Shown here in pieces: positions 2,240-58,168 of a stretch of DNA of 64,000 bases. Positions within the stretch are counted from its first letter, which is position 1. Every line of letters begins with the position of its first letter. The notes beneath the pieces were generated by a model. It ran no database searches, was not told the origin of the DNA, and was given only the letters and a program-made list of their open reading frames with translations. The position numbers and the translations under genes are program-made. Source of the stretch: Elsinoe ampelina (lineage: Eukaryota). The stretch is from assembly GCA_010093995.1 (NCBI GenBank), contig ML992510.1, positions 385,504-449,503 on the forward strand. Reading direction: 5' to 3'.

Positions 2240-5200
2240 TAGTACTAGCGCTAGTACCTACTTAGCGCTACTACTCTAATTAAAGTCCTTTCTAACTATA
2301 ATAACCTTAGGTATTTCCTAACTACTAAGAAGCTTTTATAGTACTAGGCCTACTATACTAAGGTACTAGTATAGTTTAATATTGTTATCTAGCACTATAG
2401 TAGAAAGACTAACTCGGCTAATAGTCTATTACGTAGGCCTAACTACTATAAGTATAAAGAAGATATATAGAAAGAGCGCTATATATTAGTTTCTCTCTTA
2501 GAGTAAGTATTATAAATATAAAGTAAAGGAGTTATACTTATATCTATTATAGATAAGAAACCTAAGGCTAGTAGAGCCTAGGAAGATAGTAATAAAGCTA
2601 GTATAGCTTATATACCTTAAACTACTCCCTAATATAACATACTTATATAATTCTAATATACCTCTAGAATAGCGCCTATAAGTCTACCTATTACCTTAGG
2701 AGTGCTATAGCTATACTAAGAAGAGTTAGAGCCTCTAGAGTAAGAAGAGTAGCGCCTAGAAAGTACTTATATAAATCTTTCTCTAAGCCTAACTAGTAAT
2801 GTTAAATTAGAATAATATATATCTACTCTAGTATCCTAGGATATACTACTACTTACCTAGGAAATAATGGAGAGCTAAGAGTATAAAGATAGTATAACGC
2901 CTATATAACTCTAGGACACCTCTAGTAGAAAGCCTACTATAATTTTAGACTAGAGTTAGTAGATTATATACCTCTATACTATATAAGTATTAGTAGATAA
3001 GACTATATATATCTCTTCTACTTCTATATTACTCTAGGACCTTATCTACGTAGTATAGTAAAGGGACGCCTTTACTTATAGTAAGAAATAGAAACTTCTA
3101 AAAGAGAGAACCTTAACTAGTAATAGTACTACCCCTAAGTAGAGCCTATCTAGTAATAGCTTACTCCGGAACGGAGATAGAGTATATATCCTAGAAGAAA
3201 CTACCTTAAGAGTAGAGCTTATATAGTATAATTATAATAACTCCTTAGAGAGTTACTTTAGCTATATAAAGACCTACCTTAATATAAGGAGGAAGTACTA
3301 GTAGCTAGGTATATCCGTCGCTACGAAAGTATATATTAAGCACTATAATAGCTACTAAAGGTATAAGGTAATATAGTATAAGCCTTATAGCCTCCTATAA
3401 CTCTTACTAATTCTATCTATACTTAAGGCCTTATAATACTAGTTACTTAATTTTATTACTAGCTTACCCCTAGTAGAGCTCTAGCCTAGTGTTATTATAG
3501 ATATAATTATTATATATGTCTATTACTTATCTAAGTTTAGTATCTATATACTAATATTAACTAAGCTTAATACTAGAGACTTTACTAATCTATTTAAAAT
3601 AGATATTATAACGTTATTTAGAATGCTAAAGATACTAGTCTTAGATAGAGAGTCTATCTTTATAAGCAAATTCTAAAGTACGCTATACTAGCGCTAGAAG
3701 GTGTAATATAAGCTTAGCACCAGTTTCTATCTATAGATAGATAGCTAAACTAAAAGGTAAAACTAGACGCTAGAGTAGTACCTATACTACTTTATCGACT
3801 ATTACTAGATAGACTAGCTATATTAGGTTAAGTAGGCGCAATTTGTATATAATAACACATATTAAGTATTACTATACGCTACGCTAGTGTAGTTCTTATT
3901 TATATAGGAGATATACCTACTTAATAATATTAAGGCGCTAGCGCTACCTAGCTACGCGCTAGTATATAATCTATTAGTTAATAACTAAGTATAATCTATT
4001 ACTAAAACACACACGGAGCTTACCCAATACCTATATAAAGTATAGAAAGACTAAGCGCTAGCCTATAATAGAGGTTAATAAGTAAAGGTCTTCTATAATA
4101 GTAACGAAGTTATACTTAGCACTAAGAACCTTTATAGCGCTAGACCTAGCTATAAGCTATTAGCTAAGTATATTAGCCTATTTATAATTATATAACAAAT
4201 TAGTATATAGATATATAAGCTATACTTACTAGACAAAATAAAGCTAATCTATAACGTCTTTAACATTACGCTACTAGAGCTATATAGGTATAGTAAAGGT
4301 ATATACCTACTACCCCTAGAGGTAGAAGGGCAGGAAGAATATATTATTAAATATATCTTTAATAAGAGCTATACTAGCACCTCGAAGGTGCTATACTACC
4401 TAGTAAAGTAGTAGAGTTACTCTATAAAAGAAAGTATATAGAAGCTAGTAAAAAACCTTATAAATACTAAAGAATTACTATAGAAATACGAGGTAGCTTA
4501 GTATAAGTATAGCGCTAGCTAAATACTCTAGATATACTTAGGATTAATAAGTTAAAGGTATAAATTTTAAAGTAAAAAGTACCTAGGTATAGCACTAGGT
4601 TAGCTTAGAGTATTATTAGCTTACGTAGGGAGAACGCTAGCGTAGTAAAAACTATAGAATTATACTAAAGTAAAGGGGGCATAGCGTAAGTATAGCGCCC
4701 TAGCCCCCCCTACCTTAACTATCTATATTATCTATCTTAGTTTTATTCTTATTATTCTTCTTAATACTATTAATATATCTAGTTAGTACCCTTATAGCGT
4801 TATTAATTACCTACGTAGTAGTAGCTTACTTATTCTTAGTAACTACCTATAAGGAAGTTAGTATAGCTTAGGCATTATAGGGGCGTACTTCTAGACTTAT
4901 ATAATTAGCTAAAGCCTTAAGTATAAAGCTAGTATTACTAATTATACCTAGGCGTAGTGCCTTTACTAGCTACTTAGTATCGACTTTAGAGGTAAAGAGC
5001 GTAGTAAGAGTACTATTATAGCATAAAGAAGTTATACTATTACTATTACTCTTATTAACTACCTTACTCTTACTCTTAGCGTTAGACTTGCTCTATATAT
5101 ACTTAGCGCTAGCCTTCTCGTATATATAGTTAGTATAGGTAGTAATCTAGCGCTTTAGAAGAATAATGTTCTTCTTAGGAGTAGTAGTATTATTATAGAG

Positions 5201-5468
5201 TAGTATATATATAGTAAAGTATTTATTCTAGAGCTTCTTAGTAGTAACTTAATCCTTAGAGTTAAGCTTAGTAGGCTACTAAGGTTAGTATAAAGTAGAC
5301 GTAGTATAGGTATAGAGTATACCTAGTAGTAGTGTTTATTACTATAACTATAACAATTATAGTAGGTAGCTTTAGCCTTAGTAATATAGTAGAGAGAATC
5401 CTTAATAAAGAGTATACTATCTTTAAGCTAGAGGTACTTATCGATAGTAATAGCGTAGCGTAAGTATA

Positions 5469-5666
5469 TATAATAAAGGTAGAATATTAGAGCTAGAAAG
5501 ACAAGTATATAGGAGTAGAATAGGTGTTACACTAGTATACCCTTAATTATTATAAGACTAATCTCTACTCTATCTATTCTATAGGCGAGAAGTATTTTAT
5601 TCTTCTATAGAGAATAATATCTCTAGAGTAAGCTAGCGTAGTATACTTACTATGTTAGTTCTTATA
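5469..5666 (-). repeat. 3' LTR of B2
   Basis: Direct match to 12563-12760 and reverse complement of 20570-20767. TG...CA termini mutated to TA...TA. Purine tract adjacent on the minus strand. Confidence 0.9.
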
Positions 5667-6323
5667 ATTATTCCTTCTCTTCGAGAGGTATGCCCTTACG
5701 CCTATAAGCCTTAATAAAACCTAGAAAACCTAGTATAGAAGAAAACTAGGAAAGAGTATCTCGCTAGTGCCTCTTAGGTATAGTATACTCTTCGTACGTA
5801 TAGCGTGTCTATAGTAGCCTATACTATTCTTCGTATACTAGATATAGTAATAATAGTATAATTCTTTATATATAGAATATAGCGCTCTTACGTTGTTATT
5901 TTTATATATAAGGATCTACCTATTATTATATACTACTACCTATTATTCTCTAGATTAGGCTTAGCTTAGAGCTAGATATATACTCTTCTCTTTTTCTTCT
6001 CTTCTTCTTTTCTTCTTTATAATACTTCCTTTACGTAAGTATTCTACTTAACGCTAGCTCTATACTTACGTAGGTCTAATACTATACTAGTAACTTATTT
6101 TAGGTGCTATATAGTATAGACTAGGCCTTACTAGCCTAAGGGCTAGTAGGGGAGGCTTAGTATATACACTAAGCCTATACTACTATAGATCTAGCTATTA
6201 GGCTTATCTATTTAGTTGTTTATTTACTAACCTAGTATAGTATCTACGTAGTAATTTTTTTTCTCTTTGTTATTCTAGCTCTATACTAGCTTACCTTCTA
6301 TACGCTTATATACTTTAATAACT

Positions 6324-7194
6324 ATAGCTCCTAAAGTTCCTAAGGAGTAAGTATTATATATAGTACTTACGCTACGCTAGCGCTAACCTTTTATAGACCT
6401 TATAAGAGCGATTTTACTAACTAGAACTAGTACTCTATACTATACTTACGCTACGCTATTACTATTAATAAGCACCTCTAGCTCGAAGATAGTATACTCC
6501 CTATTAAGGATCCCCTCTACTAGATTACTAAGGCTAAAGCTACTCGCTATAATTGTTATAGTTATAGTAATAAACACTACTACTAGATATACTCTATACC
6601 TACGCTACGCCTACTTTATACTAACCTTAGTAGCCTACTAAGCTTAACTCTAAGGATTAAGTTACTACTAAGAAGCTCTAGAATAAATACTTTACTATAT
6701 ATATACTAACCTATAACGACGCTACTACTCCTAAGAAGAACATTATTCTCCTAAAGCGCTAGATTACTACCTACGCTAACTATATATATAAGAAGGCTAG
6801 CGCTAAGTATATATAGAGTAAGTCTAACGCTAAGAGTAAAAGTAAGGTAGTTAATAAGAGTAATAGTAATAGTGTAACTTCTTTACGCTATAATAGCGCT
6901 ATTACTATACCTTTCGCCCTTAAGGTCGACACTAAGTAGCTAGTAAAGGCGCTACGCCTAGGTATAATTAGTAATACTAGCTTTATACTTAAGGCTTTAG
7001 CTAATTATATAAGTCTAGAAGTATGCCCCTATAATGCCTAAGCTACGCTAACTTTCTCGTAGGTAGTTACTAAGAATAAGTAAGCTACTACTACGTAGGT
7101 GATTAATAACGCTATAAGAGCGCTAACTAGGTATATTAATAGTGTTAAGGAGAATAATAAGGATAAGAGTAAGGTAGATAATATAGATAGTTAA
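6324..7194 (+). pseudogene. Antisense accessory gene of family B (4 exons; Cys-cluster protein with acidic tail), RIP-damaged
   Basis: ATA(ATG)-GCT-CCT-AAA start at 6324. Intron-like segments 6347-6396 (gtaagt..gctaac..tag), 6587-6633 (gtatac in B1..tactaac..tag) and 7021-7062 (gtatgc..gctaac..tag). Splicing them gives one frame ending at TAA 7192-7194 in which the internal stops are RIP-type TAG/TAA. Confidence 0.6.
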
Positions 7195-10100
7195 GGTAGG
7201 GAGGGCTAGAGCGCTACGCCTATACTATACTCTCTTTACTTTAGTATAATTCTATAGTTTTCGCTACGCTAGCGTTCTCCCTACATAAGCTAATAATACT
7301 TCGAGCTAACCTAGCGCTATGCCTAGGTACTCTTTACTTTAAAATTTATACCTTTAACTTATTAATCCTAAGTGTATCTAGAGTGTTTAGCTAGCGCTAT
7401 ACTTACGCTAAGCTACCTCGTATTTATATAGTAATTCCTTAGCGTTTATAAGGTTTTTTACTAGCTCCTATATACTTTCTTCTATAGGGTAACTCTACTA
7501 CTTTACTAGGTAGTATAGCGCCTTTAGAGTACTAGTATAGCTCTTATTAAGGATATGTTTAATAATGTATTCTTCTTACCCTTCTACCTCTAGGGGTAGT
7601 AGATATATACCCTTACTACGCCTATATAGCTCTAGTAGTATAACGTTAAAGACGTTATAGATTAGCTTTATTTTGTCTAGTAAGTGTAGCTTATACGCCT
7701 ATATACTAATTCGTTATATAATTATAAACGAGCTAATGTACTTAGCTAATAGCTTATAGCTAAGTCTAGCGCTACGAAGGTTCTTAGTACTAAGTATAAC
7801 CTTATTACTATCGTAGAAGACTTTTACTTATTAATCTCTATTATAGGCTAGTACTTAGTCTTTCTATACTTTACGTAGGTGTTAGGTAAGCTCTATATAC
7901 GTTTTAGTAATAGATTATACTTAGTTGTCGACTAATAGGTTATACGCTAGTACGTAGCTAGGTAGCGCTAGCGCCTTAATATTATTAGGTAGGCATATCT
8001 TCTATATAAATAAGAACTATACTAGCGTAGCGTATAGTAATACTTAATATATATTGTTATACACGAATTACGCCTACTTAACCTAGTATAGCTAGTCCGT
8101 CTAGTAATAGTTAATAAAGTAGCGTAGGTACTACTCTAGCGTCTAGTTTTGCCTTTTAGTTTAGCTATCTATCTATAGATAGAAACTGGTACTAAGCTTA
8201 CGTTACGCCTTCTAGCGCTAGTATAGCGTACTTTAGAATTTACTTATAAAGATAGACTCTCTATCTAAGACTAGTGTCTTTAGCATTCCGAATAACGTTA
8301 TAATATCTATCTTAAATAGATTAGTAAAGTCTCTAGTATTAAGCTTAGTCGACGTTAGTATATAGATACTAAACTTAGATAAGCGATAGATATATACGAT
8401 AATTGTGTCTATAATAACGCTAGGCTAGAGCTCTACTAGGGGTAAGCTAGTAATAAAATTAAGTAACTAGTGTTATAAGGCCTTAAGTATAGATAGGATT
8501 AGTAAGAGTTATAGGAGGCTATAAGGCTTATACTATATTACCTTATACCTTTAGTAGCTATTATAGCGCTTAATATACACTTTCGTAGCGATAGATATAC
8601 CTAGCTACTAGTACTTTCTCCTTATATTAAGATAGATCTTTATATAGCTAAAGTAACTCTCTAAAGAGTTATTATAATTACGCTATATAAGCTCTACTCT
8701 TAAGGTAGTTTCTTCTAGGATATATACCCTATCTCTATTCTAGAGTAGGTTATTACTAGATAGACTCTACTTAGAGGTAGTACTATTACTAGTTAAGGTT
8801 ATCTCTTTTAGAAGTTTCTATTTCTTACTATAAGTAAAGGTGTCCCTTTACTATACTATATAGATAAGGTCCTAGAGTAACGTAGGAGTAGAAGAGATAT
8901 ATATAGTCTTATCTACTAGTACTTACGTAGCGTAGAGGCGCGTAATTTACTAACTCTAGTCTAAAATTATAGTAGGCTTTCTACTAGAGGTGTCCTAGAG
9001 TTACGCGGGCGTTATATTGTCTTTATACCCTTAGCTCTCTACTATTTCCTAGGCGAGTAGTAGTACGTCCTAGAATGCTAGGGTAGGCGTATATCGTCCT
9101 AATTTAATATTACTAGTTAGGCTTAGAGGAAGATTTACGTAAGTACTCTCTAGGCGCTACTCTTCTTACTCTAGAGGCTCTAACTCTTCTTAGTATAGCT
9201 ATAGCGCTCCTAAGGTAATAGGTAGACTTATAGGCGCTATTCTAGAGGTATACTAGAATTATATAAGTATATTACGTTAGAGAGTAGTTTAAGGTATATA
9301 AGCTATACTAGCTTTATTACTATCTTCCTAGGCTCTACTAGCCTTAGGTTTCTTATCTATAATAGATATAGGTGTAACTCCTTTACTTTACATTTATAAC
9401 ACTTACTCTAAGAGAGGGACTAATATATAGCGCTCTTCCTATATATCTTCTTTATACTTATAGTAGTTAGGCCTACGCGATAGACTATTATCTAGGTTAG
9501 TCTTTCTACTATAGTACTAGATAATAATATCGAACTATACTAGTACCTCGGCGTAGTAGGCCTAGCACTATAAAAGCTTCTTAGTAGTTAGGAAATACCT
9601 AAGGTTATTATAGTTAGAGAGAACTTTAATTAAGGTAGTAGCGCTAAGTAGGTACTAGCGCTAGTACTACGCTACTTCTATAATAGCGAGAAGCTCTTTA
9701 TTATAGGTAGTATAGTTTAGTTCTATACCTTATAGCTTCTAGGACTAGAATACTATAGAGTACTAGTGTTATATAGGAGTATTGCCTTCGTTTTACTAGG
9801 AGATTACTCTAGAGAGTATAAAATCTAAAGTATTAGTCTTAAGCTAGAGAGGCTTACCTAATAAAAAGTAGCGTAGTATAGGTACTTACGTAAAGGTAGC
9901 TTTAAGCCTATTAAAGGCCTACGCTACGTTATTACTCTATAGAAATAGGCCTACTTACTTCCCTTAAACTAACTCTTATATAAGTATAGTTAGTAGTAGT
10001 ACTACGTAGAAGAAGCCCTTAATAAATTAATAGTAGAAATTAGTAAATCCGAGAAAGGTTTATAACTTCTTAAGGCTAGTAGAGGTAGGCTAGTTAGCGA

Positions 10101-12562
10101 TAGCTTATACCTAGGGCTACTCTATTACAACGCTATTACTACTAATAACATAGCTTAGGAATACTATCTATATTACCTCGAAGATATACTTCTTTAGTTT
10201 TATATAGAGGCTATTCTTATATAGGTAGTCTAGTACACTCCTAATAGCCTAGTAATACTCTTACTTATCGCTAGTGTAGATTAGAATATCGTCTAGGTAT
10301 ATAATATAGTAGTAGTCTACTAAGCTACTTAAGTACTAATATATATAAGCCTAGAACGTAGCTAGGGCGTTAGTAAGGCTAAAAGGTATAATAGTATATT
10401 TAAAGTAGCTATAGTAATAGTAGAACGCTATCTTCTATTTATCGCTATACTAGATATATACTCTATAGTAGATATCTATAAGGTCTAGCTTACTAAATAA
10501 GTATACGCCCTTAATATAATTAAGCATCTTAGTAATTAAGGGTAAGGAGTAATAGTTCTTAATAGTAATATTATTTAGCCTATAATAGTTAATATATAGG
10601 TATAGCGAACTATTCTTCTTAGGAACGAATAGAATAGAAGACCCTATAGAGCTAGTGCTATACTAGAGTTAACCCGTCGCTAAGCTATTATCTATATACT
10701 CTCGAAGTACCTAAAGCTTCTTCTTACTAAGGGAGTAGATAGGTCCCTAAGGTAGCTATTTTCCCTCTTTAATATCGATAGAGTAAGTAAAATTATTACC
10801 TAGTAGCGCTATTACTATACTCTTATTAAAAACATCTATATAGTTATTAAGCTAGTATAGTAGAGTTAGGGCACTAGGTTCGTCCTAGCGTATATATACT
10901 AGGTAGAGCTAGGCGTTAGGCTAATTTAGCTCCTAGAAGAAGGAAGGTACATCTAGGATCGATACCTATATAGCGCTAGTATAATACCTCTACGTACTAG
11001 TGCTCTACTAAATCTTAGAGTCGTAGGATAATAGCTATAGTAGGCCTAATATAAGATTATAACTAGTTATATTAACGCTTTTAAACTACTAGCGTAATAC
11101 CTATATTATTCCTTTACTATCCTTAATAGTAAAGGCTAACTTAGTATATCTATAGGTAGTTAATTCGTATTTGTCTAAGCTACGTACTTAGTATACTACT
11201 AGGGGGTTAATAGCGATATAATAGCGTATAGTAAAATACTAGCTAATAAAGTTACTATCGGCGCTACTATCTATTAGAGCTACCTCTTCGATAGGGCCTT
11301 TAGGTAGATTAACTATAACGTTAGTATAAATTTAGTATATATCCTATATTACGCTAGAGCTACTTAGAATTAGTAAACGTAAGGATACTATCTATTTTAA
11401 AGAGTCCTTCTAGAGATAGTTTAGCGCCTAATAGTCTAGGCTCTTATAGATATTATAAGGGTAAGTAGCGCTAGGTTAGGGAGCTATAGGGGTAGCGTTA
11501 GTACTACTCTACTAGTCCTTTTAGCCCTTATAGTCTTCGTTATAGTAAGGCCTTTTAGTAAAAGTATTAGTCTTCTTTCTAGCGTTACGCTTATACTACC
11601 CCTATATAGGGTCGGAGTAGCCTAGTAGGTTCTACTCTAAATAGAATAGATATACTAGAAGTTCTACCTTAATTAAAAGTAGATTCCCCTAATAGAGTAC
11701 TTCCAAGTATAGCTCTAGCGTAGTATAGGCAATAAGCTATATATAGTAGGTATTATCTAGGAGTAGTACTATCTTAATATAGAACTTGTAACTATTAAGG
11801 AACATATAGAAATTAGTAATTAACTATTCTCTACGCTAGTATAACGTAAAGAACTTTACTATATAGCTATTACTATAGTTTTTAGAACTCTAGGCTTAGT
11901 CCTAAAGCTAGGACTATATTAGGCTCTATAAGAGTATAACGCTAGCGCTCTTAGTATATAAGTCCTAATTATAGCTAAGCTAACCTTTTAAGTAGCTAGT
12001 AGCTATATAGCACTAAGTAACTTCTTTAAAGTAGATATTTAGCACTATCTTAAAGACGTTATTATATATATATATAAATTCCTTAACTCTTACTATAATA
12101 GTAAACTCTAAAGCCTCGGGGTAGTATAAGTTTAGTATATACTCTCTTACGATTTATAGTTTTATTAGGCGAATATCGTCGAGTCGTATGTTATTAAAAC
12201 AACTATATAGCACCGGCGCTACAACTAGAGAGCAACTACTAAGTATATTCTTAAGCTAAGCGATATAAGTAAGAAGCGCTTTATATATAGTATTATTTCC
12301 TATATTAGCTATACTTCCTATAGGAGCTATATTAGTATAGTATAGTCTTAGCGCTAGGCCTTCCCTAGCCTAGTAATCTTTAATAGGAGTTGTCTCTAGA
12401 GTTGTAGCTAATTTAGTAAATGTCTCGCTAATAGCTAAGCTATTAGAGAGTTATCTATACTAGTGCTACTCTAGTAGTAGTTAGTCGTTTCGCTAGCGCT
12501 AAGTATAGGGTACTATCTTGTCCGTATAGCTCTATCTAATAGGATATAAGAGAGATTAGAAT

Positions 12563-12760
12563 TATAACGAAGGTAGAATATTAGAGCTAGAAAGACAAGT
12601 ATATAGGAGTAGAATAGGTGTTATACTAGTATACCCTCGATTATTATAAGACTAATCTCTACTCTATCTATTCTATAGGCGAGAAGTGTTTTATTCTTCT
12701 ACGGAGAATAGTATCTCTAGAGTAAGCTAGCGTAGCGTACTTGCTACGTTAGTCCTTATA
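12563..12760 (-). repeat. 5' LTR of B2
   Basis: 198-bp direct repeat of 5469-5666, followed by TSD gtata. Confidence 0.9.
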
Positions 12761-13111
12761 GTATAGTATAGAATACTAGTTCTAGTTAGTAAAATTACTC
12801 TTATAAGGTCTATAAAAGGTTAGTACTAGTATAGCGTAAGTACTATATATAATACTTACTCCTTAGGAACTTTAGGAGCTATAGTTATTAAAGTATATAA
12901 GTATATAGGAGGTAAGCTAGTATAGGGCTAGAATAATAAAGAGAAAAAAAATTACTACGTAGGTACTATACTAGGTTAGTAAACAAATAACTAAATAGAT
13001 AAGCCCGATAGCTAGATCTATAGTAGCGTAGGCTTAGTATATATACTAAGCCTCCTCTACTAGCCCTTAGGCTAGTAAGACCTAGTCTATACTATATAGC
13101 ACCTAAAATAG

Positions 13112-19050: not shown

Positions 19051-19599
19051 TTAACTAATAGAAGCACCTTAATCGTTACTAAGTAAGGAACTCTAATTAG
19101 AGTTAGGCATAAATAATTGCTAGTTCTATAGTAGGACGGGATCCACTAATAATAGCATTTTCTCCTACTCTAAGACTTAAGTATAGGTCTCTTCTAGAGA
19201 GATTACTTCCTCTACCTTATCCTCTAACTTTTATATCTCTTCGCGTAGATAAAGCTTATCGCCTATAGCTCTTTAATAAGCCTCTTTTGCCTTTTTATAA
19301 GCTTCTTTAGCTTTCTTTCTAGTAGCCTTAGCCGTAACTAATTCCTTTCGTAAATAAATATACTTAGACTAGAGACGCTACTATTTCAATTTTGTTACCT
19401 AAATATTATAACCTAAGTAGTTACTTGCGATATACTAGCTATAAATACCCGACCGAATGTGGACTTTATAGTCTAGCTCTTTTGACCTATAACAAGAGTA
19501 AGCCTACGGTATGTTAGTCCTAAACAATTTAATAAACTCTAAGAGGTTCTTTTATATAGATATACTAGATTTACTATGCCTTCGACAACTAGGAGGCAT
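19051..19599 (-). pseudogene. Antisense accessory ORF of family C (Zn2Cys6-like cluster plus coiled coil), RIP-damaged
   Basis: ATG CCT CCT start at 19599 (also at 52201 in C3). ~180 codons in one frame with only TAA/TAG stops. Tyr codons at C-x2-C-x6-C-x8-C-x2-C-x7-C spacing (TGY>TAY by RIP), then a K/E/A-rich helical region. Confidence 0.6.
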
Positions 19600-19673
19600 G
19601 TTTAGTACATAGCGTATAAGGATAAGGAAGGATACTTACTTATTAGGACAACTTAATTAAGGGAGAAGAGTAA

Positions 19674-50861: not shown

Positions 50862-52745
50862 TATTACAAACTAGTAGAATAGCTAGAGCGTAGGAACGTT
50901 AGGACTAATTAAACTACTAAGGTTATTATATAACCTAGCTCGACGTTTACTCGATTCTCTATCTTTTCTAGTAGCTCTACCCTAGAGACTATAGAGTATA
51001 TAGGTTACTAGTAGACGTATACTCTATGTTACTCTCGACTCTTACTATAGAGTATATAGAGTACATAGAGTATATAGTAAAGAATATATATATATAGGAA
51101 CAGTTCTTACCTTATGTAAGTACTATAGTTAACCTTGTCTAGATAGTAAACACTAGTATTACTAAGGCTAGCCTTTATAATACTATCTAATTATACTTTA
51201 TTATCTATAAGATATACCTTCTCTAACTCTTACCTTAGTACTATACTACTATAGAAGTAGAACTACCTCGTTCTTAGCTTAGCTTAGACTACTAGCATAG
51301 GCTATATTTAGATAGTTCGTAACATTTTAACTACTCTTACTATAGTATAGCACACTACGAGGTTAATAAGTAACTCTTGCTCTAAGTTACTATTAGTATC
51401 TTCAATTACTAGCAAGCTAAAAAAGCTTACTATTAATAACATATCTACTACTAGTTTAACCTCTAGTAAATATAGAAGGTCTCTTAGTATAGGAGAAGGA
51501 TAAAGTAGACCTAAGTTAGAAGTAAAACTCTTCTATAGAGACTACGCCTACTTAAGGCGCTTCCTTGTTTAACTTAAAGCCTTCTTTGCTCTAGAGAGAA
51601 ATAAGTACGCTAACGACATAGTAAAAGTCCTCTATGCTAGGATATACCTTAAAGGCGCTACTATTACGAACCGTCTAAACATAGCCTACGTTAGTAGTCT
51701 AAGCTAAGCTAAGAACGAGGTAGTTCTACTTCTATAGTAGTATAGTACTAAGGTAAGAGTTAGAGAAGATATATCTTATAGATAATAAAGTACAATTAGA
51801 TAGTATTATAAAGGCTAGCCTTAGTAATACTAGTGTTCGCTATCTAGACGAGGTTAACTATAGTACTTATATAAGGTAAGGACTATTCCTATATATATAT
51901 ATTCTTTACTATATACTCTATATACTCTATGTGCTTTATAGTAGAGCTACTAGAGAAGATAGAGTATACGTCTACTAGTAATCCTACGTGCTCTATAGTT
52001 TCTAGAGTAGAGCTACTAGAGAAGATAGAGAACTAGGTAAATGTTAGGCTAGGTTACGTAATAACCTTAGTAGTTTAATTAGTCCTAATATCCCTACGCT
52101 CTAGCTTATTCTACTAGTTTGTAATATTACTCTTCTTCTTTAATTAAGTTGTTCTAACGAGTAAGTATTCTTCTCTATCTTTATATGCTATATACTAAAC
52201 ATGCCTCCTAGTTGTTAAAGGCATAGTAAATCTAGTATATTTATACAAAAGAATCTCTCGAAGTTTATTAAACTATTTAGAACTAATATACTATAGGCTT
52301 ATTCTTGTTATAAATCGAAGAGGCTAGACTATAAGGTCTATATTTAGTTAGGTATCTATAGCTAGTATATCGTAAGTAACTACTTAGGTTATAATATTTA
52401 GGTAACAAAATTAAAATAGTAGCGTCTCTAGTCTAAGTATATTTATTTACGAAAGGAATTAGTTATAGCTAAGGCTACTTAGAAAGGAAGCTAAAGAAGC
52501 TTATAAAAAGGTAAAAGAGGCTTATTAAAGAGCTATAGGTAATAAGCTTCGCCTACGTAAAGTAATATAGAAACTAAAGAATAAGACAAAGAAAGTAATT
52601 TCCCTAGAGGAAACCTATATTTAAGTTCTAGAGTAAGAGGAAATACTATCGTTAGTAGATCCTATTCTACTATAGGACTAGTAATTATTTATACCTAACT
52701 CTAATTAGAGTTCCTTATTTAGTAACAATTAGAGTACTTCTATTA

Positions 52746-56200: not shown

Positions 56201-57188
56201 ATGTTCCTTAATAACTATAAAGTCTAATAATTCTCTACTAGTTACACTAAGTAGTGTTATATACTTATATTAGTATAACTATTCTCTCTAGGTATAGCTA
56301 GGTATTAGCATCAAAGACGAAAGTAGGTTAAGTAGATTTATCTTATTATATTCTATTCTAGTAATAGATGTATATTATTATATAGTTTCTCTATATCTCT
56401 ATAAGGTATACTTTAAGTCGTCTACCCGGTAGTAGTACGTTATTATTATTATTAGATAAATCGTTATTTGTATTGTTATATTATAGTTGTTTAGCGTATT
56501 CTTTATTATATTTCTCTTTATTACTGCTATCTCTAGTATAGTTATAGTTAGTAAGGCTACACTAAGTATATTCCCGTACTTAGCTATAGGGAATAGTACT
56601 ATCTATTTTAATTACCGAGAAGTCTATAGTGTATTTAAGACTAATAGTCTCTTCTCTAAGTATATTATATAAGTAAATAGTATAGTACTATTTATAATCT
56701 AGATTTGTACATTTCTAGAGCGATATATAATATACCTTTCCTTATAGTTTACTATAAGAGCTAAAGGTAAAGCTACTATATTATTATATAGTACTTATGT
56801 CCTAATACTTCGTCTCGATAATTGTATATTAGTAATTATTACTAACTACCTTCTAAGGTTAGTTAATGTTACTACTAATTATAGAAAGCCTTTCTAGGTT
56901 AGGTTCCTAGTCTAGCTATTTCGTTAGTTGCCTATACTTAGATAGCTTATGTAGAAACTAACTAGATCCCTACTTGTCTAATAAGTAAATATAATAAAAG
57001 TTATTATAATATACTATCTATAATAGCGTTATATATTAGCTTTGTTATTTACTATTAGTTATAGAGATATTAAGTATAATATCTAGAGAGAATTCTATTA
57101 CCTCTTAAGTCGTTATAGACTTCTTCTATATTTCCTTATCTACGCTAAAGGTCGTTAGGTCTTCTATAGTAGTATTAGCCTTTTTCTC

Positions 57189-58168
57189 NNNNNNNNNNNN
57201 NNNNNNNNNNNNNNNNNNNNNNNNNNNNNNNNNNNNNNNNNNNNNNNNNNNNNNNNNNNNNNNNNNNNNNNNNNNNNNNNNNNNNNNNNNNNNNNNNNNN
57301 NNNNNNNNNNNNNNNNNNNNNNNNNNNNNNNNNNNNNNNNNNNNNNNNNNNNNNNNNNNNNNNNNNNNNNNNNNNNNNNNNNNNNNNNNNNNNNNNNNNN
57401 NNNNNNNNNNNNNNNNNNNNNNNNNNNNNNNNNNNNNNNNNNNNNNNNNNNNNNNNNNNNNNNNNNNNNNNNNNNNNNNNNNNNNNNNNNNNNNNNNNNN
57501 NNNNNNNNNNNNNNNNNNNNNNNNNNNNNNNNNNNNNNNNNNNNNNNNNNNNNNNNNNNNNNNNNNNNNNNNNNNNNNNNNNNNNNNNNNNNNNNNNNNN
57601 NNNNNNNNNNNNNNNNNNNNNNNNNNNNNNNNNNNNNNNNNNNNNNNNNNNNNNNNNNNNNNNNNNNNNNNNNNNNNNNNNNNNNNNNNNNNNNNNNNNN
57701 NNNNNNNNNNNNNNNNNNNNNNNNNNNNNNNNNNNNNNNNNNNNNNNNNNNNNNNNNNNNNNNNNNNNNNNNNNNNNNNNNNNNNNNNNNNNNNNNNNNN
57801 NNNNNNNNNNNNNNNNNNNNNNNNNNNNNNNNNNNNNNNNNNNNNNNNNNNNNNNNNNNNNNNNNNNNNNNNNNNNNNNNNNNNNNNNNNNNNNNNNNNN
57901 NNNNNNNNNNNNNNNNNNNNNNNNNNNNNNNNNNNNNNNNNNNNNNNNNNNNNNNNNNNNNNNNNNNNNNNNNNNNNNNNNNNNNNNNNNNNNNNNNNNN
58001 NNNNNNNNNNNNNNNNNNNNNNNNNNNNNNNNNNNNNNNNNNNNNNNNNNNNNNNNNNNNNNNNNNNNNNNNNNNNNNNNNNNNNNNNNNNNNNNNNNNN
58101 NNNNNNNNNNNNNNNNNNNNNNNNNNNNNNNNNNNNNNNNNNNNNNNNNNNNNNNNNNNNNNNNNNNN
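57189..58168. other. Assembly gap (N run)
   Basis: Run of N. Confidence 1.

Follow-up and report, generated by a model that had tools for sequence, protein, structure and literature searches.

The stretch of DNA analysed here (the window) comprises 64,000 nucleotides of contig ML992510.1 of Elsinoe ampelina (assembly GCA_010093995.1, positions 385,504 to 449,503 of the forward strand). Self-comparison of the window delimits a full-length fungal Ty3/Gypsy element, B1, at 5469-12760, flanked by a 5 bp target duplication (GTATA). Between its pol and its 3' LTR, on the strand opposite gag-pol, lies the region of interest, for which a preliminary description had proposed a spliced accessory gene. 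The features of the element and its immediate surroundings are as follows.

4714-5468, minus strand: 3' part of the antisense gene of B2, a second copy of the family (ends approximate)
5469-5666, minus strand: 3' LTR of B1, 198 bp, a direct repeat of 12563-12760 at 93%
5667-6323, plus strand: non-coding stretch of 657 nt on the 5' side of the antisense gene, with inferred room for an internal promoter
6324-6346, plus strand: putative exon 1, 23 nt
6347-6396, plus strand: putative intron 1, 50 nt, phase 2
6397-6586, plus strand: exon 2, with the six-Cys pattern, RIP-mutated
6587-6633, plus strand: intron 2, 47 nt, phase 0, two codons past the last Cys
6634-7020, plus strand: exon 3, 129 codons, RIP-mutated
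7021-7062, plus strand: putative intron 3, 42 nt, in frame
7063-7194, plus strand: putative exon 4, with an acidic tail
7402-12558, minus strand: gag-pol frame of B1, with reverse transcriptase, RNase H, integrase and SH3, RIP-mutated
12563-12760, minus strand: 5' LTR of B1, a direct repeat with 5469-5666
12761-12882, minus strand: 5' part of the antisense gene of B2, severed by the insertion of B1 (ends approximate)

The LTRs, the 5-bp target duplication and the order of reverse transcriptase, RNase H and integrase place B1 among the Ty3/Gypsy elements, and its gag-pol frame matches Pfam RVT_1, RT_RNaseH, RT_RNaseH_2 and SH3_Tf2-1 above cut-off. At the integrase end chromodomain-like words can be recognized by eye, and Pfam Chromo is without a match on the RIP-mutated frame. 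Self-comparison also places B1 inside B2, which is split by family A as well. The point at which B1 entered coincides with the first Cys codons of the B2 antisense gene (5464-5468/12761-12765), which is probably chance; the second split of B2, by family A, came later and lies at about 13110/20136. By eye, the family A copies carry an antisense remnant of their own behind pol, at 19060-19620 (minus strand) and about 52180-52745 (plus strand), in which a Tyr/Cys pattern near the canonical 2-6-8-2-7 is followed by a Lys/Glu-rich, coiled-coil-like stretch, and which resembles L083, one of the relatives considered below. Runs of N occur within these copies from about 52750 onward and at about 57188-58168. 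Between 24000 and 49500 the window holds a GC-rich host gene island, flanked by two RIP blocks, with ORFs that we take to resemble SMC1, an aldo-keto reductase, a Pan1-like protein, an MFS transporter, a GNAT acetyltransferase and a P450.

The three intron-like segments of 50, 47 and 42 nt that had been proposed for the antisense strand are all present, at 6347-6396, 6587-6633 and 7021-7062, and the putative exons 1-4 sum to 732 nt, or 243 codons and a stop. Tallied over the 28-29 family B copies that cover each site, intron 1 opens with GTAAGT and closes with TAG in 28/28, its signals being kept even in a diverged copy (L027), while intron 2 has the donor GTATAC in 26/29, the branch CTAAC in 26/29 and the acceptor TAG in 29/29. 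These two donors are as they had been described; the GTATGC given for the third is found in just 3/29 copies, the site varying among GTGCGC (11), GTACGC (8, the form also found in B2) and others, with a branch CTAAC in 29/29 and an acceptor TAG in 28/29 behind it. The signals had further been said to occur in both B1 and B2, which is true only in part: donor 2 reads GTATAC in B2, as in most copies, but ATATAC in B1, and the gene of B2 is split by B1. Nor are three introns the full set of candidates, since a fourth had been missed at 7080-7142 (63 nt, with the donor GTAAGC in 12/13 copies and a branch lying 12 nt ahead of the acceptor); this segment would take in both of the exon 4 codons that are stops in most copies. 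The acidic C-terminus is supported, Asp or Glu standing at 6 of the last 16 codons (in at least two copies) against 10 of 129 in exon 3. On the 5' side of the model, a CT-rich tract near 5985-6020 precedes the putative start by about 300 nt; a branch and acceptor-like site at 6238-6240 (within 6220-6240) could end a 5'-UTR intron, with no donor within 40-70 nt.

The region occurs in at least 28 copies in the genome, a lower bound given that 30 loci were fetched. Twenty copies were fetched at length; 12 of them are full-length, and clear 5-bp target duplications flank most of these. The antisense region is kept in all 13 of the full-length copies aligned. Every copy examined is RIP-saturated (9-30 CA+TG in the region against 268-301 TA in full-length copies), and no working copy was encountered among those examined in the genome. 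Under these circumstances the claim that one open frame extends from 6324 to 7194 finds no confirmation in these copies: the start site reads ATA in 27/28 and ACA in 1/28 copies and ATG in none, and 12 codons of the model are stops in most copies, 8 of those in all, so that neither the open frame nor its end at 7194 can be demonstrated within this genome. The absence of ATG is itself uninformative, because TG before G is almost never kept in family B, and a codon-position test of transversions among the copies is likewise without information, the family being too young for it. Contigs from runs X3 and X4, which bear the label of another organism and were placed on 6582-6596, have a diverged form of the region that is mutated as well, its small indels and loose ends clustering at the start of intron 2.

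It must be considered that RIP, by enriching TA, itself makes CTAAC, TAG and Tyr codons, and that the region might accordingly be non-coding or belong to an unrelated gene. The distribution of stops argues otherwise, as stop rates differ strongly by frame (0/0.208/0.079 in exon 2, 0.233/0.035/0.078 in exon 3 and 0.318/0.047/0.128 in exon 4; chi-square P 1e-8 for exons 3 and 4 together, 4e-4 for exon 2), and the stop-rich frame shifts across intron 2 by the amount expected of a 47-nt intron. This shift bears out half of the assertion that introns 1 and 2 must both be removed to keep the frame; for intron 1 the same is likely rather than proven. The frame test is blind to intron 3, whose 42 nt are a multiple of three. 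Intron 2 is the best supported of the introns, intron 1, the start codon and the gene end are likely as modelled, and intron 3 as modelled is uncertain. Stop periodicity alone leaves the strand undetermined, and it is the intron triplets that point to the plus strand: counting donor-branch-acceptor triplets that no fewer than 80% of the 13 full-length copies share, four donors lie inside 6324-7194, that of 7080-7142 among them, and none on the minus strand, though four others, which speak for the RIP reading, lie elsewhere on the plus strand. The enrichment corresponds to a Poisson P of about 0.002 for an 871-nt region that was picked post hoc.

Similar reasoning applies to the cysteines. The six-position Tyr/Cys pattern by itself recurs at three further places in the element, as an artefact of RIP would have it; pattern and a donor two codons on are found together at a single site on both strands of B, at 6443, with the spacing 2-21-9-2-6 (codons 24, 27, 49, 59, 62 and 69, at 6443, 6452, 6518, 6548, 6557 and 6578). 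The spacing is the one first described. TGY survives at just one of the six positions, as TGC at codon 24 in 5/29 copies, against 0/29 at the other five. The survival test has little power, as known integrase cysteines retain TGY in 0/13 and 1/13 copies. Judged from the family B copies alone, five of the six positions are compatible with an ancestral Tyr or His, and an exclusion of His at the six positions was rejected, the integrase His codons being also almost fully converted and the contexts uninformative. The retained TGC at the first position, the frame shift that fits 47 nt and the uniqueness of 6443, along with the same layout in the nearest intact pol relative, make a RIP artefact very improbable in our estimation, even with periodicity blind to strand and sequence similarity to the relatives weak. 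Introns 1 and 2 of L027, the diverged copy, have changed in their 5' halves while donor, branch and acceptor have not; the excess of changes falls short of significance, at 5/97 against 14/732 for these introns (P 0.06), and with intron 3 included 5/139 (P 0.21). An alternative plus-strand frame of exon 2 (6399-6586, x mod 3 = 0) has stops in 0/62 codons in any copy and is probably a shadow of the coding frame. A third ORF on the sense strand was rejected, its frame being without intron signals and the motif in relatives being antisense only.

Relatives were collected with an integrase-end profile, giving 80 metagenome loci (the best 80 of 540 stretches) and 8 from a viral collection. The motif was counted in the 48 of these 88 loci with at least 1 kb downstream, the 40 with under 1 kb being excluded, and all six Cys were required within one exon. 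By this count CxxC-x(6-29)-C-x(7-9)-CxxC-x(6-7)-C is found antisense in 8/48 loci and sense in 0/48, at 359-1176 nt behind pol, and the intact relatives envisaged in the preliminary description do exist. Their distribution follows the pol tree, a quick, midpoint-rooted one in which B is a long, composition-biased branch: 7/12 loci in the two groups nearest B bear the motif, and 1/36 outside. Of the five loci near B in which the motif was missed, three have a RIP-mutated look, and two of them align over the gene region of L051 at 77-82%. B groups with the motif-bearing L055 and an Elsinoe australis integrase (SH-aLRT 98), and B and L055 have in common nine residues between Cys3 and Cys4 and the word AKAT.

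The gene structure recurs as well. A GT stands two codons past the last Cys in 8/8 motif-bearing relatives, as in B; that of L083 is doubtful because of a stronger donor 19 nt further on, and may be chance. L083 has the canonical spacing 2-6-8-2-6 and lies elsewhere in the tree. In L051, as in B, the intron after the last Cys is 47 nt long with CCT directly behind it, and the acidic tail is present there too. L054 and L075 have three introns each, by eye, and L051 and L052 two each in our models; an early intron of L075 is similar, by eye, to intron 1 but has phase 0. Behind pol in the eight motif loci, intron-like triplets number 11 antisense and 0 sense, and in L052 and L075 the antisense gene lies inside the LTRs. 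Over 280 codons L051 and L052 differ by a dS of 0.50 and a dN of 0.05, a dN/dS of 0.10 (pol 0.135), with a 10 nt difference between their first introns. A protein search gave 10 matches, all of them unnamed members of the L051 family. Another relative, L065, has antisense acidic ORFs behind pol (2958-3644, minus strand), and the six-Cys motif is absent from the 1.1 kb present; its motif exon may lie off the contig or be absent.

Direct similarity between the family B gene and that of the relatives is weak at the sequence level. A homologue search with the RIP-mutated profile of the exon 3-4 alignment returned 0/4335 candidates, and a word-based one with the pol alignment 0/8000; two antisense family B profiles gave no significant match against the 88 loci (best E 0.39), a profile-profile comparison of A7 with A4 gave a probability of 0, and RIP-tolerant scores of B against the relatives were inside the shuffle range. 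When RIP was simulated on the profiles, the top match fell in the corresponding exon and frame for 2/12 queries, with scores that 1/70 to 13/70 shuffles matched or beat. Homology of the B gene with the relatives rests instead on its position and strand, its Cys pattern, the placing of its intron and the kinship of pol.

With these lines of evidence it is very probable that the region is a real, antisense, spliced gene, and the central proposal of the preliminary description, a maintained accessory gene, is upheld by intact relatives with the same position, strand, motif and intron and by the dN/dS of 0.10. The region is best explained as a RIP-killed copy of a third gene, carried antisense between pol and the 3' LTR by one group of fungal chromodomain Ty3/Gypsy elements. 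One might suppose instead a fragment of a host transcription factor that was captured and is carried passively, its introns retained by virtue of the antisense orientation, or else a unit of which only the antisense RNA matters, a form of regulation discussed in the accessible text of PMC7264820. We consider this improbable. Passive carriage accords poorly with the dN/dS, and with a Cys pattern and intron position conserved across elements with divergent pol; moreover, own-genome searches, limited in reach, each scored 29 candidates, none of them an intact host paralogue.

What the product would be is suggested chiefly by its cysteines. Zn(II)2Cys6 proteins (Gal4, Ppr1, Leu3, Pho7; PF00172) have the spacing C-x2-C-x6-C-x5-12-C-x2-C-x6-8-C, and the present domain agrees with them in its two CxxC pairs, two single Cys and a second half spaced 2 and 6-7. 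It differs in the first loop, which instead of 6 residues has 21 in B and between 11 and 29 in seven of the relatives, so that the PF00172 spacing fails for B (2-21-9-2-6) and holds for only L083 among the eight relatives. Gal4-type clusters also have a basic first loop, which is missing from the alignment of the relatives. Membership of PF00172 is not supported on the further ground that neither exon 2 of B nor any of seven intact Cys exons of relatives matches the Pfam family, and a sequence search of the PDB gave no Zn2Cys6 match. The broader likeness to a Zn cluster draws weak support from structure. An AlphaFold model of the Cys exon, built for the relative L055 rather than for B and possibly biased by the Cys pattern, has two short helices (pLDDT 75, pTM 0.49), and a fold search with it over 48,161 chains returned only five with Z of at least 2: GAL4, Pho7, 1cld (which we take to be a Zn2Cys6 domain), PPR1 and Leu3. 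All five are small DNA-binding domains and weak matches, the best being GAL4 (Z 3.6, rmsd 2.9 over 40); in Foldseek, Leu3 and Pho7 made up 4/10 rows, at E 7 or worse. Weak as they are, the scores share one direction. A six-Cys zinc-cluster-like domain is likely, and its working is probably that of a Zn2Cys6 cluster whose first loop is long, though it fails the spacing and score tests of that family.

From these properties a mechanism may be sketched. A separate antisense mRNA would start from the 657-nt stretch beside the 3' LTR, or from the LTR, and would be spliced by the host; the introns could persist because reverse transcription starts from a genomic RNA of the opposite strand, which would remain unspliced at these sites. 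The product would be a nuclear protein of about 240 aa in which a binuclear cluster of Zn2Cys6-like type, its first loop long, is followed by a helical middle part and a tail that is acidic. It would bind DNA and regulate the element in trans, activation of LTR transcription being its simplest role; an acidic tail fits activation, as in Gal4-type factors. That the product is such a DNA-binding transcription regulator of the element is the function we favor, tentatively, at somewhat under an even chance.

Two other functions for the same gene deserve mention. An anti-silencing or chromatin factor, directed against heterochromatin, RNAi or RIP, would also be maintained under selection, as the dN/dS between L051 and L052 indicates, and a first loop ranging from 6 to 29 residues would be unlike a fixed sequence-reading module. 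DUF3716 (PF12511) provides a lead in this direction, being a Cys-rich fungal domain which, as far as the accessible text of PMC8232023 goes, occurs in genes of the Zymoseptoria DNA transposon REP9. It is a weak neighbor in the Atlas (score 0.78-0.79, 28% of members, all Atlas matches being below 0.9), and a score under 0.8 is a lead only; DUF3716 has no Pfam match in the seven intact Cys exons, and the same search found no known anti-silencing domain in them. In addition, family B is RIP-saturated here, and the protein therefore did not block RIP in this host. We regard an anti-silencing role as unlikely. A late nucleic-acid-binding cofactor, in RNA export, particle assembly, nuclear import or integration-site choice, seems to us rather unlikely as well. 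For the antisense ORFs of plants such roles have been put forward on the analogy of accessory proteins in retroviruses (PMC7264820, in its accessible text), and the restriction of the gene largely to one part of the pol tree is compatible with them; the structural neighbors, however, are transcription-factor DNA-binding domains only, and the acidic tail fits activation.

An antisense gene in this position has precedents. The brtn gene of the Botrytis element Boty was reportedly the subject of a 2011 paper (Zhao 2011, Virology 417:248). According to the accessible portions of later sources, it is an antisense gene of unknown function between pol and 3' LTR of a chromodomain Gypsy element (PMC7264820; bioRxiv 2021.04.13.439636; PMC4227169). 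B and its relatives have this same arrangement, with an antisense model that falls within a fungal Gypsy element, behind pol and ahead of the 3' LTR, the integrase of B ending in chromodomain-like words; a difference from Boty is that all family B copies are dead, and the likeness is one of layout. In plants, the aORF-3R class (maize Grande gene23, rice RIRE2, Silene Retand, PvRetro13) is similarly antisense, sits in the interval that separates pol from the 3' LTR, and is present in the majority of copies, and Grande gene23 has a promoter of its own, from which it is transcribed antisense (PMC7264820, in the text accessible); the plant elements have other named domains (SMC, transposase 28) and are likened by layout. 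PMC7264820 nowhere uses the word "intron". No title or opening abstract in our literature search concerned a spliced zinc-cluster-like accessory gene in a fungal Gypsy element, a search mostly outside subscription papers, among which such a report may be in print. The layout is in any case already published for brtn, and the family B gene is a variant of it with added structural detail.

The copy in the window is a real but dead accessory gene. Antisense extra genes of LTR retrotransposons are on record from plants and Botrytis, with their function described as an open question in the accessible text of PMC7264820. The fungal version gains a defined anatomy from the present analysis, namely a six-Cys zinc-cluster-like domain, a conserved intron and purifying selection, and its intact natural relatives make a direct test possible, by zinc and DNA binding and by LTR reporter. 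With more reserve than for the regulator itself, we suggest that this fungal chromovirus group may consist of "complex" retrotransposons, with their own antisense, spliced, zinc-cluster-derived regulator, variable in its first loop and with an intron fixed two codons past the last Cys, that would work in the manner of a retroviral accessory trans-activator, possibly acting on host genes as well. If true, the brtn-type gene, long without an explanation, would acquire a fold and a role open to testing.
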